From: Candidatus Nomurabacteria bacterium RIFCSPLOWO2_01_FULL_41_18
GTDB taxonomy: Bacteria > Patescibacteriota > Minisyncoccia > Phycocordibacterales > UBA9973
Length of the DNA stretch: 64,000 nt
Assembly (NCBI GenBank): GCA_001785865.1
Contig: MFUZ01000009.1
Location: 15,309-79,308, forward strand
Reading direction: 5' to 3'
Shown here in pieces: positions 27,827 to 48,917 of this stretch (its first letter is position 1; each line of letters starts with the position of its first letter). Below the pieces are notes generated by a model. That model had not been told where the DNA came from. It worked only from the letters and a program-made list of their open reading frames with translations, and did no database searches. The position numbers and the translations under genes were made by a program.

Positions 27827-27845
27827 TAATTTAATTAAAGCATTT

Positions 27846-31864: not shown

Positions 31865-32707
31865 ATGAAAAATAAAATCACAAAATTAGAAATAAGACAT
31901 CAGCGTACGCGTCCTATTTCGTACGGGATGATCTATAAAGCTAAAAAATCACTAGGACAGAACTTCTTGAAATCGGAAATAGCCCTCCGACAAATTATCG
32001 AAGCGGGAGAGATAAGATCCGATGATATAATTCTAGAAATAGGGCCGGGTAAGGGAGCGCTCACATCCAAGCTTCTAGCTTCTAGCTCTAAGTTGATAGC
32101 TGTAGAAAAAGACAGAGAACTTCTTGAATTTCTTAAAACAAAATTTGAAAAAGAAATCGCATCTGGGCAATTGGAATTAGTACAGGGAGACATTTTAGAA
32201 TTTAATGCTAGTGCCTACAGCCTAAAGCCCAGCGCCTATAAAATCATAGCCAATATTCCCTACAATATCACCGGTGCAATATTGAAAAAATTTTTAACTG
32301 AAAAAAAACAGCCAGAAGCGATGGTGCTCATGGTTCAACACGAAGTGGCCACCAGGATTCTCGCGAGAGACGGCAAAGAGAGCATCTTGTCGGTATCGGT
32401 CAAGGCTTACGGCAATCCAAAGATGGTGGCGAAGGTTGATAAAAGATATTTTTCACCGGCGCCAAAAGTAAATTCAGCAATCATTTCCATAAAAAAAATA
32501 TCTCGCCAAACTTTTCAGGAAAATAACGTGAACGAAGAAAAATTTTGGGAAATAGTAAAAGCCGGCTTTGCCCACAAGAGAAAAAAGCTCTCTTCTAACC
32601 TAAAAGCTGTGTGTCAAAGGGACACTTTAACATCTTTAGGAAATAAAAGGGCTGAAGATTTGACGCTTTCGGACTGGATAGAGCTTTGCACTGAAAATAC
32701 TAGATGA
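31865..32707 (+). CDS. rsmA: 16S rRNA (adenine1518/1519-N6)-dimethyltransferase
   Basis: KKSLGQNFL head motif and SAM motif ILEIGPGKGALT; start may be the internal Met near 31928. Confidence 0.85.
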   Translation: MKNKITKLEIRHQRTRPISYGMIYKAKKSLGQNFLKSEIALRQIIEAGEIRSDDIILEIGPGKGALTSKLLASSSKLIAVEKDRELLEFLKTKFEKEIASGQLELVQGDILEFNASAYSLKPSAYKIIANIPYNITGAILKKFLTEKKQPEAMVLMVQHEVATRILARDGKESILSVSVKAYGNPKMVAKVDKRYFSPAPKVNSAIISIKKISRQTFQENNVNEEKFWEIVKAGFAHKRKKLSSNLKAVCQRDTLTSLGNKRAEDLTLSDWIELCTENTR

Positions 32708-32718
32708 GATCTTCTTTT

Positions 32719-34041
32719 TTATTTAGGCGCTTCGCCCCATACAGGACTTGCAACATTGGCCGTGACGTCACCACAGTAAGGTCTGACTCCAATTGAACAT
32801 GTACCAGCATTTTTAGTAAAAAAACCGAGCTGAGGCCCAGCAATTCTTGGGTCCCCAACAATAGGTTTATATCCAGAGGACCACCAATAAAAACCTGACC
32901 CTTGGTTACTAGAAAAATCTGTCATAATTGTCAAATACCCGTCTCCGCAAGTGCACCTCGTAACAATACCAGTATTGGTGCCCCCTTCTGGTGTCTGTGC
33001 GTAAGCTTTTTGAGGTGTGAAAACATCAAAAATAGAATGAAGCATTGCAAGAAAATTTTTATTCTCTGAACTTGTTAAGTCGGAACCAAATGATAGTTTT
33101 CTCAAGCCAGATAAAATTGGTGCCTGGGAAGATCCACTACCATACCCGTTTTCAATTGTCACCCAAAACTTTTCGTATAATTCATCAAAATTATGCCCAT
33201 TATCATTTAACATTTTTCGTAGATCATCTTCGTTTTTCATATCTCGATACGGAGCCACAATATCGTCAATAGAACCACCGACTGCCTGCACTGGATCTAA
33301 GATTTGATTTAAAAGCGTAGACGGTAAATTTAACAACTCTTCTTTATTCATGGTTTTTACTTCCGGAGGTTGAAACACGAAAGAGATAACTTTGCCATCA
33401 CTGGATGGTAGATCTTCAAATCTAGCTTCGATTTGCCCATATTGGAGAAGCACAGTATTACGATTGAAAGAAAAATTTTCACCGTAAATTTTTACGGTAT
33501 TCCCAGATCTCACTTTTTCTGGGTAAACACTAAAAACCTTCGGGGGCTGAACTTGAGAAACAGGGACGTAATCTGGAGACGGAATACTAAGTGAGGCCTG
33601 ATCAGTTTGAGGTTTTGGACTACCGTCACATTTGGCACCAGTTATGGGACTATATCCAATACTTGAAACACAACCTGTGGGGTAAATACTACCATTAGCC
33701 AAAACACCATGGAGCACAAAACGAGAGAGAGGGCCAACTATTCCATCAGCCACCAAGCTATTATTTAACTGAAAAATTATAACCGCATTTTTGGTCAAAG
33801 GGCCAAAACTACCATCTGCGACGACTCCCACCTTTTCTTGGAGACATTGGACCTGTAAGCCTTTAGAACCCACTCTAAGTGTGTCGACAATGGTACAGTC
33901 GCCGGAAACTTCTGTTACAAAGACAGTTTGTAAAAAAAACAAAGAGAAAAAAAGAATAAAAAAGTGAAATAATCTCATAAGTATAATTATACACAAAGGA
34001 AGCCCGAAAAAGCTAGTTTGCTTTATAAAAAGGTGATACAA
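32719..34041 (-). CDS. Secreted protein with two peptidoglycan-binding (PG_binding_1-like) modules and an uncharacterised C-terminal domain
   Basis: LQVQCLQEKVGVVADGSFGPLTKNAV and LVADGIVGPLSRF modules; N-terminal signal anchor. Confidence 0.5.
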   Translation of the reverse strand: MYHLFIKQTSFFGLPLCIIILMRLFHFFILFFSLFFLQTVFVTEVSGDCTIVDTLRVGSKGLQVQCLQEKVGVVADGSFGPLTKNAVIIFQLNNSLVADGIVGPLSRFVLHGVLANGSIYPTGCVSSIGYSPITGAKCDGSPKPQTDQASLSIPSPDYVPVSQVQPPKVFSVYPEKVRSGNTVKIYGENFSFNRNTVLLQYGQIEARFEDLPSSDGKVISFVFQPPEVKTMNKEELLNLPSTLLNQILDPVQAVGGSIDDIVAPYRDMKNEDDLRKMLNDNGHNFDELYEKFWVTIENGYGSGSSQAPILSGLRKLSFGSDLTSSENKNFLAMLHSIFDVFTPQKAYAQTPEGGTNTGIVTRCTCGDGYLTIMTDFSSNQGSGFYWWSSGYKPIVGDPRIAGPQLGFFTKNAGTCSIGVRPYCGDVTANVASPVWGEAPK

Positions 34042-34102: not shown

Positions 34103-34978
34103 GTGCTTTTTTTGGTTGTCCTATTTCTCATAAAGAACACATCAACATTTAAAAATACTGAGACATTTCTAAAGGGAAATAAGCAAGACAGCAGTTTGGT
34201 CTACGGAGATATGACTTTTGAGGATCTGGTGAATGAAGATACCGATGGTGACGGGGTGCTGGATTGGCAAGAGGGCTTATACGATCTTGACCCGACCAAA
34301 AGTGAAACCACCCCGGGAGTTTTAGATAGTGTAGCAATACAGAAGCTAAAAAGTGAGCAGGAGGGATCGTTGCTTGAAAGTGATAATACACAAAATGTAG
34401 AAAACTTAACACAGACAGATAAATTTTCTAGAGAACTTTTTGCCATAGTGGCCGCGACAAGTCAAAATGGAGTAATTGACCAAACTACCATAGATACCTT
34501 AGGCAGTTCGCTTGCAGAAAAAATACAAAATTCTGTTCCGAGAAAAATATACGTAATTTCCGATATAAAGATAATAGAAAGTGATATAAAAGAGGCTATA
34601 CAAAAATACAGTAACGAATTAGCTAATATCTACACAAAATATAATATTAAAAAAGGAGTAATGAATATATTGGAAGAATTCATAGCCGATGAAACTAATA
34701 CAAGTATCTTATTAGAACTTGATCCCATAATAAATCAGCTCAACGAAGTGATAAATGAGTCAGTAAAAATGCAAGTCCCAAAATCTCTATCACTTATACA
34801 TCTAGATTTAATAAATAGTTTTCAAAGAGTGCTAGAAAATATAAACGATATCAAACTTTTTGATAGTGATATCGTAGTAGCGATGGGTGCCATAATACAG
34901 TACCAACAAAATACCATAGCCCTGGAATCATCTCTGAATAGACTTACGGAAGCAGTCAGGCAAAAATTGAACAATTAA
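34103..34978 (+). CDS. Hypothetical membrane-anchored protein (291 aa)
   Basis: ORF (probable GTG start) with an N-terminal hydrophobic anchor. Confidence 0.4.
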   Translation: MLFLVVLFLIKNTSTFKNTETFLKGNKQDSSLVYGDMTFEDLVNEDTDGDGVLDWQEGLYDLDPTKSETTPGVLDSVAIQKLKSEQEGSLLESDNTQNVENLTQTDKFSRELFAIVAATSQNGVIDQTTIDTLGSSLAEKIQNSVPRKIYVISDIKIIESDIKEAIQKYSNELANIYTKYNIKKGVMNILEEFIADETNTSILLELDPIINQLNEVINESVKMQVPKSLSLIHLDLINSFQRVLENINDIKLFDSDIVVAMGAIIQYQQNTIALESSLNRLTEAVRQKLNN

Positions 34979-35005
34979 TTTAGAAAATGTATAATAAATA
35001 ACAAA

Positions 35006-37222
35006 ATGATAGCTAAAAATAAAATAACAAAACTCATTTCCGCTTTCTTAATTATTTCAATATTGTTGCCTAATGTTTTATTTTCTAAACCACAACCAGT
35101 AGAAGCTCAAGGACAAGTACCAGTTTTGGACGCTGCCGCTGCAAAGATTCTCGGTACAATTGCAGGCAACGCTAGCTCCCTCAATCTTACGAGCTTAAAA
35201 GATTGGGCAGTATATATCGGTAAAGAGTTACTCAAAGTAGCTGCAAAAAGACTGTTGGCAAAAATGACCCAAGCCACGATCAACTGGATAAACTCGGACT
35301 TCCACGGCGCTCCGCTCTTCTTGGAAAATCCAGAATCTTTCTTTAGAGACATAGCAAAATCAGAAATCAGAAACTTGGTGGACATGATCGGTTATGATAC
35401 TTTCAGGTTCCCATTCGGCAAACAGACGGCGCTCAACGTGATAAGCAGCTATAAGAGCCAGCTCGAAACCAACGCTCAATATTCTTTGAGCAAGGTGATA
35501 AATGATCCGGACCTCTTAGTGCGTTACAGAAATGATTTCAATTATGGAGGATGGAATGGATTTCTCATAAATACCCAGTATCCGCAAAATAATTACCTCG
35601 GATTCCAAATGATAATACAGCAAAACTTGGCTAGCAGGCTACAGGGGACACTGCAAGCTCCAGCGGAAAAAGTCCAAAGCTTGCTCCAGCAGGGAATGGG
35701 CTTTTTGTCTCCGCAATCTTGCCCTTCAAATCCTGCATACAACAATGGTACAAATGAATTTCAACGACCGAGCTATAAATCAATACCTTACACAAACTAT
35801 GAAGTAGAACCCACTTATAATCCGAATGTAGGTAGCGAAGAATACATCGCAGAACACGGCGATGGGCGTCCCACTCCGACCAATCAAGCAGAAATAGATA
35901 TGGCTCGCGAGCGATGGAATGCAGACAACGCGTTGTATAAAGCAGACTGGGAAAGGACAAATACTTGCCCCGGTGGTTTGCAGGCCACTACCCCCGGCTC
36001 GGTGGCAGCAAATCAAATATTTAACGCGCTTGATACTCCTAGAGAATCAACAACACTCGCTGGAGCATTGGGTAATAGTGTGGTAGATAGTGTAGGCGCT
36101 ATTTTTGACGCTCTGATAAACCACTTTTTAGACAAAGGCTTGACTGCACTCGCGAGCACAGTAAGTTCATCATCAGGAGGAGACAATTGGAGTTATAACG
36201 GTCAGACTCTTGATGGCTCGACGCCATCCGGCACGCCTACGGCTTTGAACATACCGCAAAATGTTTCAGTTACAGTAGGACAGACGGCTAGTACCACTAT
36301 ATCTGGTGGAACTGCGCCTTACAGTATTCAGACACAACCCAATATAAGTGTAGCCACTGCCCGAATTGACTTTACCGGCTCTGGGAATCCTACCCTTACA
36401 GTCACTGGTATTACGCCGGGTCAAACTTTTGTGACAGTTCAAGATTCTTCAACACCTTCTAAAACTGTTGCGGTTCAGATTGCAATAAATGCAATTGGAG
36501 CTTTAGTGATAAACCCACACAATATTTTGACAAATACGAACGACACAGTTGTAGCGACAATATCCGGTGGCCAAGAACCCTATTTCATACAAACACCCCC
36601 AAATCAAGCAGTAGCGATAGTTTCCTTGTCGAGCACAGGATTGATTGTATCTGGCATTGGAGCAGGTCAGACTTCTGTGGTGGTGAGAGATTCATCAACA
36701 CCAGTAAAAACTACGATCGCTCAAATCACGACAAATGGCACAGTTAATTTAGTTGTTCCAGATGTTTCAGTTGCAGTGGGACAAACGACCAACACAACTA
36801 TATCTGGTGGTGTGGCCCCTTATAGTGTTGAAACTCAAAATTTTACATCGGCAAATGTCAGAATTGAAGGTTCGACTCTTATAGTTACTGGTATCACGCC
36901 AGGACAAATAGTCCTGGTGGTAGAAGATTCATCTACAAAACTTACTACAACCAATGTTACAATAAGTGACAACAGATTTTTGACGGTTAATCCTGAAGAC
37001 GTTTCACTGACTATGGGTCACACAACGAACGCAACTATATCTGGTGGTGTGGCCCCTTATAGTATCAAGACAGCGCCGAGAGCAGACAGAGCAACTGCGC
37101 AAATTACTAATAGTAGCCTAAAAATAACAGCTGGCACAAATGATGGTAGAACTTATCTTATAATACAAGATTCATCCACGCCAAATCCTCAGACTTTCAG
37201 AGTTAATATTACATTGCGGTAA
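35006..37222 (+). CDS. Large surface protein with 4-5 tandem Ig-like (Big-like) repeats
   Basis: N-terminal signal/TM; repeated about 85-aa units each containing TISGG(T/V)APYS(I/V)(Q/E/K)T; near-identical DNA between repeat copies. Confidence 0.6.
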   Translation: MIAKNKITKLISAFLIISILLPNVLFSKPQPVEAQGQVPVLDAAAAKILGTIAGNASSLNLTSLKDWAVYIGKELLKVAAKRLLAKMTQATINWINSDFHGAPLFLENPESFFRDIAKSEIRNLVDMIGYDTFRFPFGKQTALNVISSYKSQLETNAQYSLSKVINDPDLLVRYRNDFNYGGWNGFLINTQYPQNNYLGFQMIIQQNLASRLQGTLQAPAEKVQSLLQQGMGFLSPQSCPSNPAYNNGTNEFQRPSYKSIPYTNYEVEPTYNPNVGSEEYIAEHGDGRPTPTNQAEIDMARERWNADNALYKADWERTNTCPGGLQATTPGSVAANQIFNALDTPRESTTLAGALGNSVVDSVGAIFDALINHFLDKGLTALASTVSSSSGGDNWSYNGQTLDGSTPSGTPTALNIPQNVSVTVGQTASTTISGGTAPYSIQTQPNISVATARIDFTGSGNPTLTVTGITPGQTFVTVQDSSTPSKTVAVQIAINAIGALVINPHNILTNTNDTVVATISGGQEPYFIQTPPNQAVAIVSLSSTGLIVSGIGAGQTSVVVRDSSTPVKTTIAQITTNGTVNLVVPDVSVAVGQTTNTTISGGVAPYSVETQNFTSANVRIEGSTLIVTGITPGQIVLVVEDSSTKLTTTNVTISDNRFLTVNPEDVSLTMGHTTNATISGGVAPYSIKTAPRADRATAQITNSSLKITAGTNDGRTYLIIQDSSTPNPQTFRVNITLR

Positions 37223-37276
37223 ATGAGATAGTAAAAAAAGTGAGAATTGTAAAGTTTTTAAAGTTAAAAATTAAAA

Positions 37277-39844
37277 ATGTCTGATAAAATTAAAAAAATA
37301 ATCCCCTATTTTCTGGTACTGATAATACTAGTCGGAGTTTTTAGTTCGGTGGAAGAGGTGAAAGCTTCCACTGCTAATCCAACAGAACCCTGTGTGATTC
37401 AATATGGAACTCCCATAAACAGACCTTGTGTTCTGCCTGAGACAACTCAACCACCAGCAGGAACACCGCAGGGACAGCCACAACCGGAAGGACCTCTGCC
37501 GGTTTGCGTTTACAACATGGGGACCGCCACAAACAGACCTTGTACTGATCCTGCCACGACAGCAGCAGCTACAACGCCAGACCCAAATAAAACACCATTT
37601 GAAAACGCTCTGGACGATCACTGTTTATCCATCGCTGACGGAAGTGTCGGCGGCTGTCTGGCGCAATTATTTTATTTTTTATTCCAGACAATACCGGCAT
37701 TTTTACTTTCTTTAGCTGGAAAACTTTTCGATGTTGTCATCGCTCTTTCTTTAGACAGTACTACATACAAGACGGGCTTTATTGAACAAGCATGGATAAT
37801 CGTACGAGATTTCTCAAACATTTTCTTCATCCTTATTTTGCTTTATGTAGCTATTCAAACAATCTTAGGAATAGGTCACGAAACTAAAAAAATAATTGTT
37901 CAGGTAATCATAATGGCTCTTCTCATAAATTTCAGTATGTTCTTTACAAAAGTGGTAATTGATTCATCAAACATCTTAGCGCTAGTTTTTTACAATAAAA
38001 TAAGCGCACCTCAAGGAGATACGCCCGCAAATATAGAAACCTTGGACGCAAAAAAGAAAAGCGTTCGAGAAAAGGGAGTAAGCCAGAGACTGGTTCAAGG
38101 CTTTGACATTACAAGATTAATTGGAGCAGAATTTTTTGAACAAGCAAAAAGCCGCTCAGGTTTTACTCTAGTATCCGTGGGAACTGGAGCCTCTGCGGCA
38201 GGTGGAGCAGTGGCCGGGGCAGCTTTGACTGCTTGGCTCGGGCCAGGAGCGGCGATCGGAGCAGTGGCCGGGGCAGGCATTGGAGCATTTTTAGCATGGG
38301 TTAATTCTGATAAAGTACCACCATCTTTACTCATGAGCATACTGATACCAGGAGGTATTATTATGTACTATGCTATATATACTTTTTTTACAGCAGGGGT
38401 TGCTTTTTTGTCTAGAATAATTGAACTCTGGATTTTAATTATCTTTTCTCCCTTTGCTTTTATGTCTTCAGCATTACCAATCTTGAAAAAAGTTTCAAGT
38501 ATTGGCTGGGATGAATGGGTCAAAAAACTCGTGGCGATAGCTTTCATGGCTCCTATTTTTATATTTTTCCTGTTCTTGATTTTTAAAATAATAGAATCCG
38601 ACATAACCAAAGATCTGCTTTCACCCACAAGAGCATTGGGAGAACAATGGCTCCTCGAAACAATTGTGCTTATTTCAATCGCTGCATTTATAATTCTGGC
38701 TCTTCTTAATAAAGCAACCAAATACGCCAAGAAGGCAGCTGGAGAAATAGGAGAAGTGATAACAAAGGGCATCATGCTAACAGCAGGGATGGCAGTGGGT
38801 GGAACTGCTCTAGGTGGAGCTTTTGTTGGAAGAGCTGCAATTGGCGGATTTATGAAAGCAGCTTCGACTGGTGACACGGCAGCAAGCAGAATGCAAGGAA
38901 GTGCTGGTAGAATAGCGAACCTCAAGACAAGTTTGGCCGCCCCTAATACAACTATTGTAGAAAAAGCAAGAATTAGAAAAGAAATATGGAGAGAATATAA
39001 AGATCAAATATCAGGAAGCATACAACAAAGAATTCCAGGGCTACAGACTGCACAAACTTGGATGGGTACAAGGTTAAACCAAGATCAACACAATATTGAA
39101 CATGCGGCTCATGCAAGACATGATCTAGACCAAGCGGCAAATGCTGTGGCCCCTGGTAAAAAATGGGAGGAGCTAAATGGAGAAAAGAGATATGAGGCAA
39201 GAAGGCAAATAGCTAGAGAAAAGGTCATAAGAGACAATGCAGCTTCGGGTACTTCTATAAAAGATTCTGCAGGAAATGTGGTGACACGCTCTGTAACTAA
39301 TCCAGATACAGGAGCAGTCACAAATGTTCCAATTGGAGCTTTTGGTACTAGAGGATGGGATAAATTAGGAACCGAAGAAAGAGCGGCCATTGATCGATCA
39401 GCAGAAGTGGGAAATGATCCTATTACCAACCATGTAATTGCTGGAAGCGCCCTAGACACAAATAAGCCAGGAGGAGGTACGACGGAAGCTGATACACTAA
39501 TTGTAGCTGCCCGGTACAAGCAAGGTATTGTCAGCAATGTTGTTCAATCTGGAGTTACCGGAAGCTACGACGTTAGAAATCTTGCCAACGTCATAGCCAA
39601 AGAACAAAGTACTGGATTCGCCAAAATGGCAATGGGTATAACGGGGGCTCTCTCAATAGGCATGCGGGGCGGATTTAAACAAATGGGAGTAAGCTACGGT
39701 GAAAGTCAGAGAAGCTTCTTCAAGGATCTTGGAAATACCATTTCTGAATCTCTAAAGAGTGCTAAAATAAATGTTGACCTTTCACATGTGGGTGAGGTTC
39801 AAAAAGAAGACAAGAAAGGAGGAGGCGGTGGAGGACATCATTAA
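37277..39844 (+). CDS. VirB6/TrbL-like polytopic membrane protein with a Pro/Thr-rich Cys-containing N-terminal region and a long hydrophilic C-terminus
   Basis: 855 aa; about 7 TM helices in the middle; repeated N-terminal motif (Y/M)GT..NRPC; C-terminal Gly run; sits beside a VirB4 ATPase. Confidence 0.5.
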   Translation: MSDKIKKIIPYFLVLIILVGVFSSVEEVKASTANPTEPCVIQYGTPINRPCVLPETTQPPAGTPQGQPQPEGPLPVCVYNMGTATNRPCTDPATTAAATTPDPNKTPFENALDDHCLSIADGSVGGCLAQLFYFLFQTIPAFLLSLAGKLFDVVIALSLDSTTYKTGFIEQAWIIVRDFSNIFFILILLYVAIQTILGIGHETKKIIVQVIIMALLINFSMFFTKVVIDSSNILALVFYNKISAPQGDTPANIETLDAKKKSVREKGVSQRLVQGFDITRLIGAEFFEQAKSRSGFTLVSVGTGASAAGGAVAGAALTAWLGPGAAIGAVAGAGIGAFLAWVNSDKVPPSLLMSILIPGGIIMYYAIYTFFTAGVAFLSRIIELWILIIFSPFAFMSSALPILKKVSSIGWDEWVKKLVAIAFMAPIFIFFLFLIFKIIESDITKDLLSPTRALGEQWLLETIVLISIAAFIILALLNKATKYAKKAAGEIGEVITKGIMLTAGMAVGGTALGGAFVGRAAIGGFMKAASTGDTAASRMQGSAGRIANLKTSLAAPNTTIVEKARIRKEIWREYKDQISGSIQQRIPGLQTAQTWMGTRLNQDQHNIEHAAHARHDLDQAANAVAPGKKWEELNGEKRYEARRQIAREKVIRDNAASGTSIKDSAGNVVTRSVTNPDTGAVTNVPIGAFGTRGWDKLGTEERAAIDRSAEVGNDPITNHVIAGSALDTNKPGGGTTEADTLIVAARYKQGIVSNVVQSGVTGSYDVRNLANVIAKEQSTGFAKMAMGITGALSIGMRGGFKQMGVSYGESQRSFFKDLGNTISESLKSAKINVDLSHVGEVQKEDKKGGGGGGHH

Positions 39845-39850
39845 AATTTC

Positions 39851-40948
39851 ATGGACCAAAAAGAATTACAAAAACAAATAGCTCTCTTTTATTCCAGGCT
39901 CCCGCCAAACGCGCAGGCACTGTTCTCCAGCATGGAGTGGCTGGAAACTCTTAAAAAAATCAGCCAGAAATATAAGCTGACCGACGAGCAGATAGAAACT
40001 CTCGGCACCGAGACCACTCTTGCGCTCCTCGGCATCATTCATTTGGTGGAGTACGAAGAAGCTCTCACGAATGAGCTTCGCTTGCCAAGAAATTTAATGG
40101 ATAAAATGATGTTAGAAATAGAAGAAACCATCATCAAGACCATCCGCCCGCAATTAGTCGAAGCTTTCGAAGCCAATAAAAATTCCGAAACAGGGGAGAG
40201 CCCTGACATTGAATCAAAGTTGGATGAACGATTTGAAAGACTGCCGAAAGAAACTCAAAATATCGTCCTAGAGTCGAAATATCGAACCATTCTTTACAAC
40301 ATCGCAAGATCGTACAACCTGAATGTGGAGCAAACAGGCATCCTCGAGTCAGCTGCAACCAGTTTGGTTACTGGAGCAATTCGTCCAGAGGAATTCGAAA
40401 ATTCTCTAAATAAAAATCTAAGATTGCCGTCTGAAACGATAAAAAAAATAGTAAGTGAAATCAGCGAGAAGATCTTTAAAAAAATAAGGGAAGAGTTGGT
40501 CAAGAACACAGGGAAAAAACCTCCTAGTCTTGATTACCCCGCAGAAGACATCGTACCAGTAGCCCCACCTACAACTTCAACTGCTTCGGAAAAAGCTACA
40601 AAAGAAGATTCTTCCATCCTGACTTCGGCTGGGATAGAAATCGTGCCGGAAAAATTAGAATTAGAGCCCGCAGAAAAGCCGTTAGAAAAAAGAGAGGAAA
40701 TGCTCCAAAAAATAGAGAAGCCCGAACCTCCTCTACCTCCTTTGGCAAAGATGCCCACAATAGAACATACGGAAAATGCTCCTACAACTCCCGTGATTCA
40801 TCCGATCTTGGCGCAAAAGTTGTCTGGCCCATTAAAGATCCCGATGACGAAAACAGAGCATTCTTTAGACAACATCACCAAAACCAACACTCCACCGCCC
40901 CAAGATACAGCCAAAAAAATAGATCCATACCGAGAAATACCGGAGTAG
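39851..40948 (+). CDS. Hypothetical acidic protein with two internal ~60-aa repeats
   Basis: ORF; repeats ...EQ..TL......L.GII...E....NELRLP...; Pro-rich C-terminus. Confidence 0.45.
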   Translation: MDQKELQKQIALFYSRLPPNAQALFSSMEWLETLKKISQKYKLTDEQIETLGTETTLALLGIIHLVEYEEALTNELRLPRNLMDKMMLEIEETIIKTIRPQLVEAFEANKNSETGESPDIESKLDERFERLPKETQNIVLESKYRTILYNIARSYNLNVEQTGILESAATSLVTGAIRPEEFENSLNKNLRLPSETIKKIVSEISEKIFKKIREELVKNTGKKPPSLDYPAEDIVPVAPPTTSTASEKATKEDSSILTSAGIEIVPEKLELEPAEKPLEKREEMLQKIEKPEPPLPPLAKMPTIEHTENAPTTPVIHPILAQKLSGPLKIPMTKTEHSLDNITKTNTPPPQDTAKKIDPYREIPE

Positions 40949-40954
40949 CTGTCA

Positions 40955-41082
40955 TGCAATCCCGTTAGAGATCAGATAGTTTATTGTTTTAGTTAATGTT
41001 AAAATTATTATTGTGGTTAATGTAATTAATAGTCTTTAATCTAGGTACGGAAATCTTAAGATTTCCTATCTCTAACGGGATG
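40955..41082. promoter_or_regulatory. 17-nt inverted repeat pair flanking a 93-bp AT-rich spacer that contains a perfect 18-bp palindrome, overlapping the start of the PrgI-like gene
   Basis: tgcaatcccgttagagat (40955-40972) and atctctaacgggatgca (41066-41082); ggaaatcttaagatttcc at 41046-41063. Confidence 0.5.
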
Positions 41083-41511
41083 CAGTTTAAAGTACCACAA
41101 TTCTTAGACATAGAGGACAAGATATTTGGCCCATTTACTTTTAAAGAGTTTGTGTATTTGGCAGGCGGGGCGGGCTTGTGTTTTGTGCTTTATAAATTAT
41201 TGGGGTTAATCCTCGGAGCTATACCTATCTTGGCAGTAGCCACCCTCGCCGTAGCCCTCGCCCGCTATAAGCCAAACAACAAGCCTTTTATCAATATGAT
41301 CGAATCGGCTTTCAATTATTTTCTTACAAGCAAGCTCTACATCTGGAAAAGGCGTAAGAATACGGCCAAGAATGACAAATTAGAAAAGGAAAATGACACC
41401 AAAAAGAGAGAAGATATGAGAGATTCTGTCCGGCTGGGGAGAAATAAATTGCGAGACCTGGCTTGGAGCCTTGATGTATTAGACCTAAGCAAACACGGAG
41501 AAAATAAATAA
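41080..41511 (+). CDS. PrgI/VirB3-like small membrane protein (2 TM helices)
   Basis: 143 aa; two hydrophobic helices at the N-terminus, basic C-terminal tail; position upstream of the VirB4 ATPase. Confidence 0.45.
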   Translation: MQFKVPQFLDIEDKIFGPFTFKEFVYLAGGAGLCFVLYKLLGLILGAIPILAVATLAVALARYKPNNKPFINMIESAFNYFLTSKLYIWKRRKNTAKNDKLEKENDTKKREDMRDSVRLGRNKLRDLAWSLDVLDLSKHGENK

Positions 41512-41512
41512 T

Positions 41513-42151
41513 ATGGCATTAAAAGCAAAAGCAACTCAAGAGTTTGTACCGATCAAGGAAATCCGTGACGGAGTGATCGTGCTAAAAGACGGAGGCTTGC
41601 GGGCAATAGTGCTCGCCAACTCAGTCAACCTGTCTCTCAAATCCGACGACGAACAAAAGGCGACGATAATGCAATTCCAAAGTTTTCTAAACACTTTGGA
41701 CTTTGCCATCCAGATATCCGTACAATCGAGAAGGCTCGACATTCGCCCCTACCTTTTGCTTTTGGAAAATAGAGTAAAAGTACAGAACGAACCTCTACTA
41801 AAACTGCAAACCAAAGAATACATAGAGTTCATTAGGAACTTCACAGATAGTGTGAGTATAATGACAAAAAGCTTTTTCGTGGTGGTTCCTTACACCCATA
41901 CCACCCTGAAGTCTGACTCAAACATTTTGAAAAGATTTTTTTCAAAAAGAAACAAAGAGGAAGCCAACATCGCCAAACAGGAAGATTTCGAGGAAAAGAG
42001 GTCTCAACTGGAAGAAAGAGTCGGCGTCATCCAGCAAGGACTCAGCCGCTGCGGCATAAAATCAGTCCAATTGGACACGGAGGCTGCGGTAGAAGTGTTT
42101 TATAAAGTTTTCAACCCCGGAGAAGTGGAAGGAAAAATTAGACTGGAATAA
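41513..42151 (+). CDS. Hypothetical soluble protein, possibly a detached VirB4 N-terminal domain
   Basis: 212 aa, ends 4 nt before the VirB4-like ATPase start; no TM; no motif. Confidence 0.35.
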   Translation: MALKAKATQEFVPIKEIRDGVIVLKDGGLRAIVLANSVNLSLKSDDEQKATIMQFQSFLNTLDFAIQISVQSRRLDIRPYLLLLENRVKVQNEPLLKLQTKEYIEFIRNFTDSVSIMTKSFFVVVPYTHTTLKSDSNILKRFFSKRNKEEANIAKQEDFEEKRSQLEERVGVIQQGLSRCGIKSVQLDTEAAVEVFYKVFNPGEVEGKIRLE

Positions 42152-42155
42152 AATT

Positions 42156-44030
42156 ATGTCAATTTTTGAAAAATTATTTAAAAAGAAAAATGTTACTCCA
42201 ACCATAGGCAACACCTATTCGAATGAAATGCAGACTTCGGTCCTGCCGGTATTGCCAGAGCAGATCTACGAATCGGCCAGTCTGGAGCTTCAGGATATCA
42301 TTGCTCCTTCGGCGCTCAAAATAGAGCCGAAGTCGATCAACTTGGGTGATAAAACCGCCCGCACCTTTTTCATAATATCCTATCCGAGATTTTTGACAGA
42401 TAACTGGTTTTCTCCGGTAATAAATTTGGACAAAATCTTCGATATTTCTATCTTTATCCACCCGATAGACACATCGCTCATGCTTCGCCAGTTCCAGAAA
42501 AAAGTCGCCGAAGTACAGAGCCAGATAAGCGTGCGCGAAAAAAAGGGAATGGTGCGAGACCCGATGCTCGATACCGCCTATCAGGACCTGGAAGGCCTCC
42601 GCGACAACCTGATCCAGGCACAAGAAAAAATGTTTGATGTGAGTATATACATCACCATTTATGCCGACAATGACATGGAGTTGTTTAAGATTGAAAACGA
42701 AATAAAATCCATTCTCGAATCAAAATTGATATACATCAAGCCAGCACTCTTCCAGCAAGAAGCCGGGTTCAAGAGCGTCATTCCCACCAATACCGACTTA
42801 CTCAATATCCACCAAAAGCTTAACTCCGGGCCGCTTTCAAGTGTTTTTCCTTTTATATCTTTCGACCTGACTGACAATAAAGGCATCCTCTACGGCATCA
42901 ACCGGCACAACTCGTCCCTCGTTATCTTCGACAGATTCAGCTTAGAAAACTATAATTCGGTGACTTTTGCCAAATCAGGTTCGGGAAAATCTTATGCCAC
43001 CAAACTGGAGATCCTGCGATCTTTGATGTTTGACGTGGACGTCATCGTCATCGACCCGGAGAGGGAATATGAATTCCTGGCGGAAGCAGTCGGCGGACGA
43101 TATTTCAACATTGCTCTTTCTTCCGACCATCACATGAACCCTTTTGACCTGCCGATACCCCGCGAAGACGAGACAGCTGAAGACGTCTTACGGTCAAATA
43201 TTATAAATTTGGTCGGGCTTTTCCGCCTGATGTTAGGCGGGCTCACCCCCGAAGAAGATTCGATGGTGGATCGGGCGATTTCGGAAACTTATGCCATGAA
43301 AGACATCACTCCGGAATCAGATTTCTCTAATATCGAGCCCCCACTTCTTTCAGATTTTGAAATGGTACTCTCCGGCATGGACGGCAGCGACTCCATCGTC
43401 GCTCGCTTGGCAAAATACACCAAAGGCTCCTGGGCCACTTTCTTGAATCGCCCTTCGAATGTAGACATAGATAAAAAATTCGTTGTCTTTTCGGTTCGCG
43501 ACATGGAAGACGAGCTCAAACCAGTAGCCATGTATATCATCATGCACTTCATCTGGAACGCAATCCGCAAAAACCTCAAGAAGAGACTCTTGGTTATAGA
43601 CGAAGCCTGGTGGATGATGAAGTCCGAGGATACTGCCTCGTTCCTCTATTCCATTGCTAAAAGAGGCCGAAAATATTATCTGGGCCTTTCCACCATCACT
43701 CAAGATGCCGCCGACTTTATGAAGTCCCCATATGGTGTACCGATCATCACCAACTCTTCCATCCAGCTCTTGCTCAAACAATCTCCAACCACCATAGATA
43801 TATTGCAGAAAACTTTCAATCTTACCGACGAAGAAAAATACCTACTTTTGGAGTCGAGCGTGGGCGAGGGGATATTCTTTGCCGGATTAAAACATGTTGC
43901 CATAAAGATCATCTCGTCCTATACCGAAGACCAGATCATAACTTCCGATCCCTCGCAAATATTATCCAATAGAAAAGCTAAAGAAGAACAAGATGCGGCA
44001 GAACTCTCTTCAAAGACCAAGCAGGTTTAA
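42156..44030 (+). CDS. virB4: VirB4/TraC/CagE-family type IV secretion ATPase (PrgJ/TcpF-like)
   Basis: Walker A FAKSGSGKSY, Walker B LLVIDEAWWMM, DUF87/AAA_10-like layout; 624 aa. Confidence 0.8.
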   Translation: MSIFEKLFKKKNVTPTIGNTYSNEMQTSVLPVLPEQIYESASLELQDIIAPSALKIEPKSINLGDKTARTFFIISYPRFLTDNWFSPVINLDKIFDISIFIHPIDTSLMLRQFQKKVAEVQSQISVREKKGMVRDPMLDTAYQDLEGLRDNLIQAQEKMFDVSIYITIYADNDMELFKIENEIKSILESKLIYIKPALFQQEAGFKSVIPTNTDLLNIHQKLNSGPLSSVFPFISFDLTDNKGILYGINRHNSSLVIFDRFSLENYNSVTFAKSGSGKSYATKLEILRSLMFDVDVIVIDPEREYEFLAEAVGGRYFNIALSSDHHMNPFDLPIPREDETAEDVLRSNIINLVGLFRLMLGGLTPEEDSMVDRAISETYAMKDITPESDFSNIEPPLLSDFEMVLSGMDGSDSIVARLAKYTKGSWATFLNRPSNVDIDKKFVVFSVRDMEDELKPVAMYIIMHFIWNAIRKNLKKRLLVIDEAWWMMKSEDTASFLYSIAKRGRKYYLGLSTITQDAADFMKSPYGVPIITNSSIQLLLKQSPTTIDILQKTFNLTDEEKYLLLESSVGEGIFFAGLKHVAIKIISSYTEDQIITSDPSQILSNRKAKEEQDAAELSSKTKQV

Positions 44031-44069
44031 AACCATCCATTTTAAGGCAGACAATGTTATAATTAACTT

Positions 44070-45053
44070 ATGAAGTTCAGACTTTTATCTTTATACTTGA
44101 TTGCCACGCTTCTCTTGTTTGGAAGTTTGGCATTGCGAGCAAATGCGGCTCCATCTACCGATATCTTAGTTGACATCACCCCTCCCAACCCTGCCCCTTA
44201 TGAAAACACGACCATAACTTTAAAAAGTTACGTTTATAATTTGGACAGTGTAATGATATCCTGGTCTCTAAACAGCAAAACCGCCGCCTCGGGGGTCGGG
44301 AAAAAATCATTTTCTGCCACTGCCCCGGCGGCAGGAGGGGAGACATCCATCGTGGCCACCATATCGCTCCCCGACGGCACCATAGAATCAAAAATCACAC
44401 TGAAGCCTTCGGTCATGGTCCTTCTTTGGCAGGCAAACGACTCTTATGTGCCGCCTTTCTATAGGGGCAAAGCCTTGCCGACAGCGGACAGCGAAGTGAA
44501 AGTGGTGGCAATGCCTGAAGTACGGACCGGCTCGGGGCTAGTATCTCCCAAAAACATGACTTATTATTGGAAAAAGGACTACACCAACAACACCGAAGGG
44601 TCTGGTTATGGAAAGAATTTTTTTCTTTTCGTAAATGATTACCTAGAAAATTCAAACAACATCTCGGTAACCGCTTCCACTATCGATCAGCAGTCTTCGA
44701 CTGCAGCAAATATAAACATAGGCATAACAGAGCCAAAAATATTATTTTATAGAAGTGACCAGTCGTTCGGAACAATTTGGCAAAATTCACTGGGTAACCC
44801 GCACAAAATAGAAGGCAACGAAATGGTGGAGGCAGTTCCTTATTTTATCTCACCCAAGCTTATCAATCATCCTTATCTAGTCTGGAGTTGGTTTATAAAC
44901 GATACGAGAGTAAGCCTGGCAGGATATAAAAAAAATATAATGCCACTACAAGTAGAGAAAGGGATGCACGGGACATCTAAATTAAGACTTGAGATCGAAA
45001 ATACCGACAAGATATTCCAAGCAACGACAAAAGAAATAAATATCGAATTTTAA
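44070..45053 (+). CDS. Secreted hypothetical protein
   Basis: N-terminal signal peptide MKFRLLSLYLIATLLLFGSLALRANA; beta-rich sequence. Confidence 0.45.
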   Translation: MKFRLLSLYLIATLLLFGSLALRANAAPSTDILVDITPPNPAPYENTTITLKSYVYNLDSVMISWSLNSKTAASGVGKKSFSATAPAAGGETSIVATISLPDGTIESKITLKPSVMVLLWQANDSYVPPFYRGKALPTADSEVKVVAMPEVRTGSGLVSPKNMTYYWKKDYTNNTEGSGYGKNFFLFVNDYLENSNNISVTASTIDQQSSTAANINIGITEPKILFYRSDQSFGTIWQNSLGNPHKIEGNEMVEAVPYFISPKLINHPYLVWSWFINDTRVSLAGYKKNIMPLQVEKGMHGTSKLRLEIENTDKIFQATTKEINIEF

Positions 45054-45054
45054 A

Positions 45055-46185
45055 ATGCAAAAATACTTGCCTTACATTTTAATACTGATGATACTGGTGG
45101 GAACACTCTTGCCGCTTGGGCAGGTGAGTGCTCAGACAGAACCGCTCGGTACTTGCACCATAACCAACAGAACCCAGCCTCGAAACATTAGCTATACTAT
45201 TGTCAAAGACCTGTCAGAAGATAGCTGTCAGGCCAGGGAATCTCCGCCTAATTTTACCGTAGCCTGGACGCAGAATCCCCCCGCACCAGTTGCTCCGACC
45301 TCTCCGCCACCGCCTGCAGCCACCACGGCTCCGGCAACAACTCCTCCCGCAGGGTACCAGCTTTTAGCTCCGCTCCCTTGTGAAAATAGCACGCCTGGAT
45401 GCGAGGGGGGAGAGCTTAGAACTTTTAACTCTGACCAGCCGAATAATCTGGGTACATACCTCAACTTGATGATAAAAATATTCATCGGAATATGCGCGGT
45501 CTTGTCAGTGGTAATGATTGTCGTGGGCGGACTCGAATACATGACAAGCGAGCTCGTACACAACAAAGAAGCAGGAAAGGAAAAAATACTAGGCGCGATT
45601 TTTGGCTTGATTTTAGCCTTGGGCGCGTACACTCTTCTTTTCACGATCAATCCCGATTTACTTGAGTCAGATGTCAGGCCGACGACGCTAGAAACTGCAA
45701 GCACAGGCGCCCCAGGCCTCTCCGGGGGAGCACCAGCAGTCAGGCCGGGAACACCGTCGTCTGCTACATGCTCAATCCAATCAGCCACATTTAACCCATC
45801 TGGTAATCAGAGCGATTCATGGTTTAATGACGACACTCCGCCCACAGTCAGGCTTCAGGTAGTTGGCAGTGCCGGCTGTGCTGGTAAAATAGCTGAAGTC
45901 AGCATCGTGGAAGATGATACTGTCTTAGTGGATGACGATGTGGCTGGAATAGATGATTTCAATGTTTTATTCACGGATAGCAACCGTTTCACTATCGACC
46001 TCATAGCTGGGGAAACTGATTGCGAACAATGGCTGGGAAATGATTGCGAATATTTTATAAAAATAGATCTGACGGGAGCTTCAAACTTTTCGACCGAAGA
46101 CCAAGGGGGAGGAGGAAACTTGGAATATGACTGCGATGGTTTATGTGATGAAGGCTGGCGCATGAGTACCATAACCCCACAATAA
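45055..46185 (+). CDS. Secreted Pro/Thr-rich protein with a central two-helix hydrophobic hairpin (VirB2/TrbC pilin-like) and a C-terminal extension
   Basis: Signal peptide; LNLMIKIFIGICAVLSVVMIVVGGLEYM ... ILGAIFGLILALGAYTLLFTINP two-helix module. Confidence 0.4.
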   Translation: MQKYLPYILILMILVGTLLPLGQVSAQTEPLGTCTITNRTQPRNISYTIVKDLSEDSCQARESPPNFTVAWTQNPPAPVAPTSPPPPAATTAPATTPPAGYQLLAPLPCENSTPGCEGGELRTFNSDQPNNLGTYLNLMIKIFIGICAVLSVVMIVVGGLEYMTSELVHNKEAGKEKILGAIFGLILALGAYTLLFTINPDLLESDVRPTTLETASTGAPGLSGGAPAVRPGTPSSATCSIQSATFNPSGNQSDSWFNDDTPPTVRLQVVGSAGCAGKIAEVSIVEDDTVLVDDDVAGIDDFNVLFTDSNRFTIDLIAGETDCEQWLGNDCEYFIKIDLTGASNFSTEDQGGGGNLEYDCDGLCDEGWRMSTITPQ

Positions 46186-46189
46186 TAAG

Positions 46190-47740
46190 ATGACAAAAAG
46201 AAATTTCATACTTTTAATAGTAATCTTGGCCCTCACTGTAATTTCGGTTTTCGTGTTTCTGGTTTTGCGCGAGCCGGGAACGGAACCATCCGGAGAAGAG
46301 ACAGGGAAGGGTACGAATTTTATTTCGCAATTTAATCCGTTCGCAACCAAGCCAAAACCTCCGGCCGAGAACCCACCGGCCGAGACTACCCCGGATGAGC
46401 TTCCAGTAGAAACTGAAAAATTAAAATTCACTAAAGTTTCAAGCATGCCCATAGCCGGATTCGCAGTCTTCACAAAAGAAAGATTGAAGGATGTTCCTGC
46501 AATCATACCGGCAATAACAGAAGAAACCCCCTATGATTTCGGCTCCGCCACTATTAAAAATGGAAGCACTGGTGAAGCAGTAAAAGAAGTTCAGAGATTT
46601 TTGAATAAAACACTAAATCTTAGCCTAGAACTTGATGGCACACTAAATGCAGAAACAATTGCCGCTATCAAGAAGTGGCAGGGAGATCATGGATTGGTCA
46701 CTGATGGTGTCGTCGGTGCAAAAACAAAAGTGTTGATGTATTCTTCTGTAAACCAAAATATGGGAACCTCAAATCCCACCTCACCGCCGACGGAATTCAT
46801 GTCTGCCTTGAGATATGTGGACAAGGCGACCGGAAATATTTACCAGACTTTCGCGGATAAGATCGAAGAAAGGAAATTCACCACCACGATAATACCGAGG
46901 GTGCACGAAGCATATTTCGGGAACCACGGAGGATCGGTAATCATGCGATATCTGAAGGCAGATGCGAGAACCATCGAGACTTTTGTCGGCTCCTTGCCGA
47001 AAGAGGTACTCGGAGGGGATACGACAGGAAATAATGAGATCAAAGGATCCTTCTTGCCTAGCAACGTCAAAGACGTGAGCCTGTCGCCGGACACTCTAAA
47101 AGTATTTTACTTGTTTGAAAGCGGTGAAAATATCATCGGCACAATTTTAAACCTGACCACTAATCAAAAAACTCAAATCTTTGATTCTCCTTTCACCGAG
47201 TGGCTACCCGAGTGGCCAAATCAAAACACTATTACGCTCTCGACCAAGCCTTCTTTCGGCGTCCCCGGATATATTTATTCGATGAACTCGGCTGGCAAAA
47301 ATTTTAGCAAGACTTTGGGTGATATAAATGGACTCACTGCGCTCACAAGTCCAGATGGGAAACTTATTCTTTTCAGCAACAACAATTTATCCCTGAACGT
47401 TTATCACACAGATACCAGAAATTCTGACACCCTCGGCATAAAGACCCTCTCGGAAAAATGCGTCTGGGGCAAAATGAGCGACGCTATATACTGTGCTGTG
47501 CCGAAGTTAATTGGTGTGGGGGCATTCCCAGACTCTTGGTACCAAGGAGAAGTTTCTTTTTCAGATCAGATTTGGAAAATAAATGTGAAAAATGGGAATG
47601 GGGCCCTGTTGCTCGACCCGGTGGCGGTAAGAGGAGGGGAGGAAATCGATGGCATGAGACTTGCCCTAGATGAGAACGAGAACTATTTATTCTTCATGAA
47701 CAAAAAAAATTCTTTCCTGTGGGAATTGGAATTGAAGTAA
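46190..47740 (+). CDS. Membrane-anchored protein with a peptidoglycan-binding module and a predicted beta-propeller (TolB-like) domain
   Basis: PG_binding_1-like GEAVKEVQRFLNKTLNLSLELDGTLNAETIAAIKKWQGDHGLVTDGVVGAKT; N-terminal TM; repetitive beta-strand C-terminal region. Confidence 0.5.
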   Translation: MTKRNFILLIVILALTVISVFVFLVLREPGTEPSGEETGKGTNFISQFNPFATKPKPPAENPPAETTPDELPVETEKLKFTKVSSMPIAGFAVFTKERLKDVPAIIPAITEETPYDFGSATIKNGSTGEAVKEVQRFLNKTLNLSLELDGTLNAETIAAIKKWQGDHGLVTDGVVGAKTKVLMYSSVNQNMGTSNPTSPPTEFMSALRYVDKATGNIYQTFADKIEERKFTTTIIPRVHEAYFGNHGGSVIMRYLKADARTIETFVGSLPKEVLGGDTTGNNEIKGSFLPSNVKDVSLSPDTLKVFYLFESGENIIGTILNLTTNQKTQIFDSPFTEWLPEWPNQNTITLSTKPSFGVPGYIYSMNSAGKNFSKTLGDINGLTALTSPDGKLILFSNNNLSLNVYHTDTRNSDTLGIKTLSEKCVWGKMSDAIYCAVPKLIGVGAFPDSWYQGEVSFSDQIWKINVKNGNGALLLDPVAVRGGEEIDGMRLALDENENYLFFMNKKNSFLWELELK

Positions 47741-48218: not shown

Positions 48219-48419
48219 ATGCGAAGTATAACAAAACGATTAAAAAATATGAAGTTTTTCAATTCATGAATTGACATTAAGTTCTAGAAATGATATAATA
48301 TAAAGAATTAGTTACGTGTACATTGGAAAACAAAAGTCGTTGAGCAACCGACACAAAACAGCTCTAAAATAGAAAGAGAGGTAGCTCTGAAAACAAAATC
48401 AGTAGGTATAGTCTTCGTC

Positions 48420-48917
48420 GTGGCCTTAAGAGCAGCGGGAAAATGGTACGTTGCTTTGCAAGTCCGCCCGTACTGGAACACAGAAAAAAACAAGCGGGAA
48501 TCGTGGCCTGGCGGACACCAAGTCACAGCTCATGGCAAATTAAAAGATGACGAAGATTTCATCCAGAGCCTCGTTCGCGAAACGGAAGAAGAGATTGGCT
48601 ATGAAGCTGCTTCCGTGGTACAACGGCTCGCTGCAAGCGGCGAACTGATCAAATTGGTTGACCACGACGGTGAAAAGGAACACGCAATCACCTTCGGGGC
48701 CGTAATCGGAAACCCGGCTGACGTAGAAGCGGTCTTGGCGGGAACAAACAGAACCACCAAAAAACAAGTCACCACCCTCATCAGACTCGTAAACGAAGAC
48801 GTGGAAATTGTCGACTTGCGCCAATTCGACAAGGAAGCGGGGGTCACAAACGACAGCATTGCGATGTTTCCGGACGAGAAGGAAGCCGTCCGGCTTGCCT
48901 TCGAAAAACTCGGTTGA
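48420..48917 (+). CDS. NUDIX hydrolase
   Basis: Nudix box GKLKDDEDFIQSLVRETEEEIGY (Gx5Ex7REUxEExGU). Confidence 0.75.
   Translation: MALRAAGKWYVALQVRPYWNTEKNKRESWPGGHQVTAHGKLKDDEDFIQSLVRETEEEIGYEAASVVQRLAASGELIKLVDHDGEKEHAITFGAVIGNPADVEAVLAGTNRTTKKQVTTLIRLVNEDVEIVDLRQFDKEAGVTNDSIAMFPDEKEAVRLAFEKLG

Follow-up and report, generated by a model that had tools for sequence, protein, structure and literature searches.

The window analysed here, a 64-kb stretch of DNA to whose positions all coordinates refer, belongs to the genome of a Candidatus Nomurabacteria bacterium (Paceibacteria, Candidate Phyla Radiation (CPR)) and contains a gene block resembling a type IV secretion system (T4SS). The block consists of ten co-directional open reading frames (ORFs), designated g0 to g9, which occupy positions 34103-47740 of the plus strand and are separated by only 1-131 bases. 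In the original prediction, ten genes were counted between 35006 and 47740, and a closing group of four proteins was announced of which three were listed. All ORFs named there are present on the plus strand where they had been placed, but this span comprises nine genes, and the tenth conserved gene, g0 (34103-34978), sits just 5' of it. The true left edge of the block is position 34103, because g0 is found by tblastn in 35 of 80 related loci and is located directly upstream of g1 in every locus with full flanks in which it was detected. Here and in the following, counts of related loci refer to the best 80 of at least 547 relatives of the ATPase g6, which were picked by VirB4 similarity. The operon structure is deduced from the gene spacing alone, because scans for promoters and terminators showed neither class enriched compared to shuffled sequence.

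Concerning the ATPase, the assignment of g6 (42156-44030, 624 residues) to VirB4 is well founded. The protein matches the NCBIfam model NF045971 (CD1110-family VirB4-like conjugal transfer ATPase) with 364 bits at a cut-off of 325, exceeds the cut-offs for P-loop_TraG (87 bits) and AAA_10 (41.6 bits), and contains the Walker A (AKSGSGKS, residues 272-279) and Walker B (LLVIDE, residues 478-483) motifs. Among solved structures, that of the Thermoanaerobacter VirB4 C-terminal domain is the closest (4ag5, E 1e-40), and a second relative in the PDB is TrwK of R388 (E 1e-7). The protein g6 is not an ATPase of the FtsK/HerA families only. The at least 547 relatives come from a scan of GTDB in which each species was represented by one genome, and the best 80 of them are 74-93% identical to g6 and all belong to Patescibacteria. 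The closest plasmid-encoded VirB4 proteins share at most 35% identity with g6 and are all from monoderms (Streptomyces, Bacillales, and Clostridia). These similarities assign g6 to the predicted VirB4 ATPases of the Gram-positive CD1110/MPF_FATA type.

The match to NF045971 covers model positions 183-733, that is, g6 represents the middle and C-terminal ATPase domains of VirB4. The preceding gene g5 (41513-42151, 212 residues), which had been taken for a soluble protein, is actually a TrsD-like protein, which is homologous to the N-terminal domain of VirB4 but encoded on its own. Its matches are to the N-terminal stretch of several full-length VirB4 models (NF045975 at positions 101-256, TIGR00929 at 3-183, and NF045971 at 2-135) as well as to NF041427 TrsD/TraD, the latter below the model's own cut-off. 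The two proteins g5 and g6 add up to a complete VirB4, a split that was overlooked in the original prediction. A sequencing frameshift as its cause was considered and rejected. The split is old and real, because g5 and g6 are adjacent but separate ORFs in 74 of 74 related loci and occur in all three relative reading frames.

The gene in front of g5, g4 (41080-41511), encodes a PrgI/VirB3-like protein of 143 residues with two transmembrane segments, as had been proposed. It matches PF12666 PrgI with 32.2 bits (cut-off 27, E 1.6e-7) and TcpE with an E-value of 2e-4, and it is found by tblastn in 77 of the 80 related loci with a median identity of 56%. Pairwise similarity of g4, g5, and the pilin-like protein g8 to their counterparts from the staphylococcal plasmid pSK41 and from Clostridium is weak. 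The 131-nt gap before g4 is flanked by a perfect 14-nt inverted repeat (ATCCCGTTAGAGAT) with arms at 40959-40972 and 41068-41081, the right one covering the ATG of g4 (RNA fold z -4.6). The gap is missing from most other loci. In the related locus L037 both arms are identical, and the inner hairpin contains a compensatory change from A:U to G:C. The inverted repeat may act as a hairpin that controls translation, or it may be a small element that was inserted.

The protein encoded by g2 (37277-39844, 855 residues) has an outer N-terminus rich in Cys, Pro, and Thr, a transmembrane core made of helices (residues ~120-520), and a long hydrophilic C-terminal region, in agreement with the polytopic core and exposed N-terminus already noted in the original prediction. 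It ends in GGGGGHH, and a C-terminus of the HGGGGHH-type is conserved. Regarding the VirB6-like identity also proposed for this protein, g2 has no match in Pfam or NCBIfam (TrbL PF04610, VirB6 models), none at E<=0.1 was obtained in a Pfam scan of 43 orthologues, and a profile of the 43 orthologues did not match any PDB sequence. All database copies are annotated as hypothetical. Support comes from the level of the fold. An AlphaFold model of residues 1-558, which was computed from 120 homologues (pLDDT 77, pTM 0.69), is a polytopic helical bundle like TrwI in the stalk of R388, and a Foldseek search with this model has three TrwI chains and DotA among its top five matches, at non-significant E-values. 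In addition, hhalign aligned the most conserved motif of g2 with TrsL, the TrbL-family protein of pSK41 (E 0.001, probability 21%), and gave an E-value of 0.078 for a second annotated VirB6/TrbL protein. The fold thus suggests that g2 is a channel subunit of the "extended VirB6" kind, with long extra domains.

The pilin-like protein is encoded by g8 (45055-46185, 376 residues). Its hairpin (residues ~130-196) is composed of two hydrophobic helices (142-160 and 178-196) and is preceded by a conserved YxLLAPLP motif. On its N-terminal side there is a domain that contains cysteine, and on its C-terminal side a Cys-rich domain of about 175 residues, which is not an enzyme. The suggested likeness of this hairpin to VirB2 is strengthened by the orthologues. 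While the window copy is marginal, 40 of the 45 positional orthologues match T4SS_pilin PF18895 at E<=1e-3 (best E 9e-10), four also match TrbC/VirB2, and g8 itself matches NF045849, a pilin-like family of a Mycoplasma integrative and conjugative element (ICE), with an E-value of 2e-4. The hairpin is accordingly classified by homology as a predicted VirB2-like pilin of the PF18895 family.

The core of the machine therefore comprises the split VirB4 (g5 and g6), PrgI/VirB3 (g4), the VirB6-fold protein (g2), and the VirB2-like hairpin (g8), and the five lineage-specific proteins g0, g1, g3, g7, and g9 travel with it. Profile searches of these five against PDB sequences gave chance-level matches only. 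The acidic envelope protein g0 (291 residues) contains DxDxDG calcium-binding-type repeats (DTDGDGVLDWQE), which are followed by a helical domain; W55, Y169, and N238 are invariant, and its weak matches to PDB sequences are to calcium-binding repeats. The surface protein g1 (35006-37222, 738 residues) has an N-terminal signal or anchor, a conserved all-helical domain with two invariant cysteines (~35-400), and Ig-like repeats (~415-738) that are variable between species. Four or five such repeats had been proposed, and four are present, as marked by SGGxxPY motifs at 433, 520, 600, and 679. The acidic cytoplasmic protein g3 (39851-40948, 365 residues, net charge -13) contains a helical module of about 90 residues, which occurs twice, and a Pro/Glu-rich linker, and it does not have a transmembrane segment. 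Neither a PDB nor a credible Pfam match was found for g3, and that it acts as an adaptor or a substrate is speculative. Its disordered tail, rich in Pro and Glu, is followed by a terminal D-P-Y motif whose residues D358, P359, and Y360 are invariant in 35 orthologues.

The protein g7 (44070-45053, 327 residues) is secreted or anchored, rich in β-strands, and conserved in the block. It is detected by tblastn in 76 of the 80 related loci and has 13 invariant residues. No PDB sequence matches g7, and weak matches to Ig and PKD domains were obtained for two of 45 orthologues. Judged by its sequence, g7 may adopt an Ig-like fold. The last gene, g9 (46190-47740), encodes a membrane-anchored protein of 516 residues for which a peptidoglycan-binding domain and a β-propeller had been predicted. 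The former is present (PG_binding_1, PF01471, residues 127-181, E 7.7e-11). The latter is weakly supported, with PD40 propeller matches in three of 46 orthologues at E-values of 0.003 or worse and no match to g9 among PDB sequences. The PG_binding_1 domain is an insertion found in two of the 46 orthologues, and the conserved part of the protein is the C-terminal domain of about 320 residues (~195-516). None of the ten window proteins contains a hydrolase domain according to Pfam and NCBIfam, in line with the original prediction, which saw no recognisable lytic transglycosylase, and this holds for the genome studied here.

The surroundings of the block are ordinary chromosome. Upstream are the genes for PcrA/UvrD (29733-31817) and KsgA (31865-32707), and downstream follow those for a HAD hydrolase, a NUDIX protein, Jag/R3H, YidC, RnpA, DnaA (51229-52581), DnaN, and a class A penicillin-binding protein (PBP). 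The block is located between ksgA and the jag-yidC-rnpA-dnaA origin region, and dnaA begins 3.5 kb downstream of the cluster. In 41 of 41 Paceibacteria loci with full 10-kb flanks the block has the same order, nearly all of them have YidC and DnaA downstream, and about half have KsgA upstream within the fetched flank. Across 48 species, the pairwise identities of VirB4 closely follow those of DnaA (Mantel r 0.92, reached by 0 of 999 permutations), with mean identities of 0.82 for VirB4 compared to 0.70 for DnaA. Because of the conserved block order and flanks in the 41 loci and the co-divergence of VirB4 with DnaA, the locus is regarded as non-mobile; it has a fixed place in the chromosome, and strong purifying selection acts on it. 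For the envelope proteins g7 and g9, the mean pairwise identities are 0.35-0.39.

Families of relaxases, VirD4, and VirB11 do not have a match in the window ORFs of at least 100 residues, as the original prediction had it, nor among the Pfam matches of the genes called in the 10 kb beyond each end. These negatives cover 84 kb, and oriT, the origin of transfer, was not searched for. Could the block still be a conjugative element, either an ICE or an integrated plasmid, or the recent remnant of one, with its relaxase and coupling protein encoded beyond the window? The passing of the conjugation-family cut-off of NF045971 by g6, the gene order like that of conjugative plasmids, and a tyrosine recombinase gene at 11270-12259 would fit such an origin. 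However, the flanks are housekeeping genes (PcrA, KsgA, Jag, YidC, RnpA, DnaA) without any ICE features beside the cluster, the block order is constant in all full-flank loci, and VirB4 not only co-diverges with DnaA but evolves more slowly. No relaxase, VirD4, or replication gene of such an element is present within the 84 kb, and the recombinase is 23 kb distant, has an XerC/D-type domain layout, and is separated from the block by housekeeping genes. Relaxases are also rare in these bacteria in general, with 109 found in 3,035 Patescibacteria genomes, 15 of those near virB4 (PMC12102498). A conjugative element was therefore rejected, and we regard this explanation as extremely improbable. 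The recombinase gene adjoins those for ribosomal protein S15 and an NYN-domain protein and looks like a housekeeping Xer and not like the integrase of an element. The nearest other ATPase of a secretion or pilus system, and the only one of the T2SSE family in the 84 kb, is a protein of 575 residues about 8 kb past the right end of the window (L083:18840-20567), which by its size is PilB-like and not VirB11-sized.

The system and its context next to dnaA are already known (PMC12102498, PMC10633639), which had escaped the original prediction. A survey described a monophyletic clade of Patescibacteria VirB4 proteins that is nested in MPF_FATA, has TrsD as its commonest companion gene, and has PrgI, VirB6, and VirB2-like genes nearby (Quinonero-Coronel 2025, PMC12102498). 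According to the same study, the Paceibacteria locus adjoins dnaA, dnaN, ksgA, rnpA, and rpmH, and that of the class ABY1 adjoins comF, recG, and radA. The Saccharibacteria T4SS, which is also devoid of a recognisable coupling protein and relaxase, was found by transposon sequencing (Tn-seq) to be essential for epibiotic growth (Wang 2023, PMC10633639). The locus analysed here contains the same set of components as the systems of these two studies, namely a VirB4 of the MPF_FATA type, an adjacent TrsD-like gene, PrgI/VirB3, a VirB6-like protein, and a VirB2-like pilin, marginal in the window copy, and likewise combines the absence of a relaxase and a coupling protein nearby with a chromosomal site near dnaA. 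There is no essential difference between them, and the likeness to Gram-positive conjugation cores and to loci of ultra-small episymbionts, which the original prediction had pointed out, held. In detail, the cluster SEML1_0006-0019 of Southlakia epibionticum has several short pilin genes in an array and separate peptidase and lysozyme genes, whereas in the Paceibacteria locus there is a single long pilin-like gene, extended by further domains, together with accessory genes of its own, g0, g1, g3, g7, and g9. The latter five are not described individually in the survey (PMC12102498).

Amongst the classical systems, the trs region of the staphylococcal MPF_FATA plasmids pSK41/pGO1 has the same order of genes, from the two-transmembrane TrsC over TrsD to TrsE/VirB4, with a small CagC/VirB2-like gene nearby. 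Its TrbL-family VirB6 protein TrsL shares a short motif with g2. To our knowledge, no other classical system has a free-standing TrsD. However, pSK41 is a mobile plasmid with a relaxase, a VirD4 (TrsK), a CHAP hydrolase (TrsG), a topoisomerase, and a single-stranded DNA-binding protein, and its TrsD shares only 24% identity over 59 residues with g5. The clostridial modules of the CTn2/CD1110-type represent the best-scoring curated VirB4 family for g6 (NF045971), and on the Clostridium botulinum plasmid pCDC3875 VirB6 is followed by PrgI, one further gene, VirB4, and a cell-wall hydrolase. There, in contrast, VirB4 is a single protein of 797 residues with about 30% identity, VirD4 occurs along with a large SLT hydrolase, and the plasmid record is typed as mobilizable with a MOBP relaxase. 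The MPF_T systems R388 Trw and Agrobacterium VirB (solved structure 7o3v, 7o41) are more different. They are diderm systems with the outer-membrane components VirB7, VirB9, and VirB10 as well as VirB5, VirB8, VirB11, and VirD4, none of which was found here. Helicobacter ComB and Bordetella Ptl also function without VirD4 and relaxase in processes other than conjugation (PMC12857230). They differ in being diderm systems with homologues of VirB7-10.

In our opinion, the block is quite probably the Paceibacteria version of the non-conjugative Patescibacteria T4SS by the replication origin, derived from monoderm MPF_FATA conjugation machinery. The monoderm ancestry is suggested because the best plasmid-encoded VirB4 relatives are from monoderms and the gene order is as in pSK41 and the CD1110-type Clostridium plasmid. 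The machine does not perform conjugation, because both relaxase and coupling protein are missing. As in characterised T4SSs, hexamers of VirB4 would dock at the membrane via VirB3/PrgI and the TrsD-like domain and would power the extraction of the hairpin pilins from the membrane onto the VirB6 platform. The stalk or pilus built in this way would then cross the cell wall and touch the host cell. Variation within the locus is greatest in the outer domains of g1, g2, and g8, and these are likely the contact points with wall and host, where they might mediate both the passage through the wall and the contact to the host.

A large part of bacterial diversity belongs to the Patescibacteria, which live attached to other microbes and lack most biosynthesis. 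Their T4SS is, as far as we know, the only one that is essential for the growth of its own bearer. The machine would most likely serve the episymbiotic lifestyle, either in the uptake of macromolecules from the host or in the delivery of proteins to it. Import from the host and export of Sec-delivered proteins are both live options, between which the present data do not separate. The T4SSs that are devoid of a coupling protein include ComB, which takes up DNA, and Ptl, which exports a toxin. ComB lacks a relaxase, too, and Patescibacteria are unable to synthesise nucleotides. It could therefore be supposed that the locus encodes a dedicated DNA-uptake machine like ComB or the archaeal Ced, with DNA of the host or the environment as source of nucleotides. 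Import of DNA or other macromolecules has indeed been proposed, and the neighbourhood of comF, recG, and radA in ABY1 points in the same direction (PMC12102498). However, transformation of S. epibionticum needs comEC and type IV pili, and deletion of comEC ends competence and leaves growth unharmed, while the T4SS is essential (PMC12857230, PMC10633639). Because comEC is required for transformation but not for growth (2025 review, PMC12857230), the T4SS is not essential merely as an aid to DNA uptake. In addition, the neighbours of the cluster in the window do not include genes for competence or recombination, and a preprint reporting tubular structures at the interface of parasite and host, possibly T4SS pili, argues for feeding on host RNA and favours it over DNA as nutrient (bioRxiv 10.64898/2026.06.21.733656). 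A machine devoted to DNA uptake thus seems rather unlikely to us.

A further possibility is that there is no translocation channel at all, and that VirB4 drives the assembly of a surface filament or of a wall-spanning anchor for adhesion, or the remodelling of the own wall while the cell grows and divides. Most accessory proteins are extracytoplasmic with adhesin-like repeats in g1 and g7, g9 has a peptidoglycan-binding domain, and the locus adjoins yidC and is near the gene of the class A PBP. Cell-wall enzymes are found in orthologues of g8, and one of them, the L,D-transpeptidase YkuD, makes cross-links and does not cut them. This explanation is difficult to reconcile with the retention and strong conservation of the VirB6-fold subunit and VirB3, given that the same core moves a substrate in every T4SS that has been characterised. 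Moreover, adhesion is already provided by type IV pili in these bacteria (PMC12857230). We therefore consider a purely structural role slightly less probable even than dedicated DNA uptake and prefer a non-conjugative T4SS that moves macromolecules between the bacterium and its host.

Several observations weigh against this preferred assignment. Half of the ten proteins (g0, g1, g3, g7, and g9) are without assignable function, and neither a VirB8-like component (NTF2-fold; sequence searches) nor a VirB1-like one was identified in the window. The assignment of g2 to VirB6 is based on a fold match with non-significant Foldseek E-values and no family cut-off passed, and g8 scores 26.4 bits against T4SS_pilin PF18895, 0.2 below the Pfam cut-off of 26.6. 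The stronger conservation of VirB4 compared to DnaA may be somewhat inflated, as the 80 loci were chosen by VirB4 similarity. Since the searches covered 84 kb, a coupling protein might be encoded elsewhere in the genome. The essentiality data are from the distant class Saccharimonadia, and the sequence is silent on pilus formation, cargo, and direction. As a discovery the locus adds little, because the system and its context have been published. It is nevertheless a clean and complete Paceibacteria example that shows the fixity of the system, with a VirB4 more conserved than DnaA, and fold-level support has been gained for the unannotated VirB6 subunit in Paceibacteria.

A side lead that is possibly new concerns the pilin-like protein. 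The C-terminal domain following the hairpin of g8 varies by species and is often a peptidoglycan enzyme. Among the 45 orthologues we found YkuD in five, VanY in five, NlpC/P60 in five, Peptidase_M15_4 in three, and SLT or SLT_2 in three. In the examples checked (L004:12919-13935, L008:12851-13801, L014:12882-13982, and L053:12954-14429), pilin and enzyme domain are both above the Pfam cut-offs within one protein. An exhaustive profile search with the hairpin yielded 33,722 cluster representatives. Of the 139 best new matches, 95 are longer than 300 residues, and in at least 36 the C-terminal domain is homologous to the enzymes named above. Short stand-alone pilins of 111-195 residues with the same core also exist, and a word-indexed search with the short hairpin query retrieved only those, so that the exhaustive profile search was needed for the long fused forms. 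Fusions of this kind are not mentioned in the 2025 survey (PMC12102498), and none were found in our literature searches. It could be possible, although we regard this as rather doubtful, that the "pilin" of the Paceibacteria T4SS is a modular carrier, in which a VirB2-like hairpin is combined, at its outward-facing C-terminus, with swappable peptidoglycan-active domains to result in an enzyme-coated pilus cutting the wall of the host or the own wall. The hairpins would polymerise like VirB2 and expose both termini on the outside of the filament. If true, the roles of VirB1 and VirB2 would be merged in one protein, and the type of enzyme would be switched between species to suit the host. The fusions provide a concrete handle on how the machine crosses the cell wall.

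Outside the block, the remaining genes of the window encode polynucleotide phosphorylase (PNPase), S-adenosylmethionine (SAM) synthetase, the CCA-adding enzyme, four tRNAs, parts of RuvABC, and enzymes of the lysine pathway. Directly upstream of g0, a divergent protein of 440 residues is encoded on the minus strand (32719-34041), which contains PG_binding_1, a weak match to TIG, and a Cys-rich C-terminus. It does not belong to the conserved block, because it is present at this position in only three of the 80 related loci. Further upstream, at 26504-29723, there are two Lys/Glu-rich ORFs of 440 and 625 residues, which have neither a credible family match nor a counterpart in the fetched related loci and which lie in a region of unusually high AT skew (0.32-0.41). 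On the other side of the block, a perfect sigma-70 consensus promoter (TTGACA, 17 nt, TG-TATAAT) is found on the plus strand at 48271-48299, upstream of the NUDIX ORF (48420-48917).

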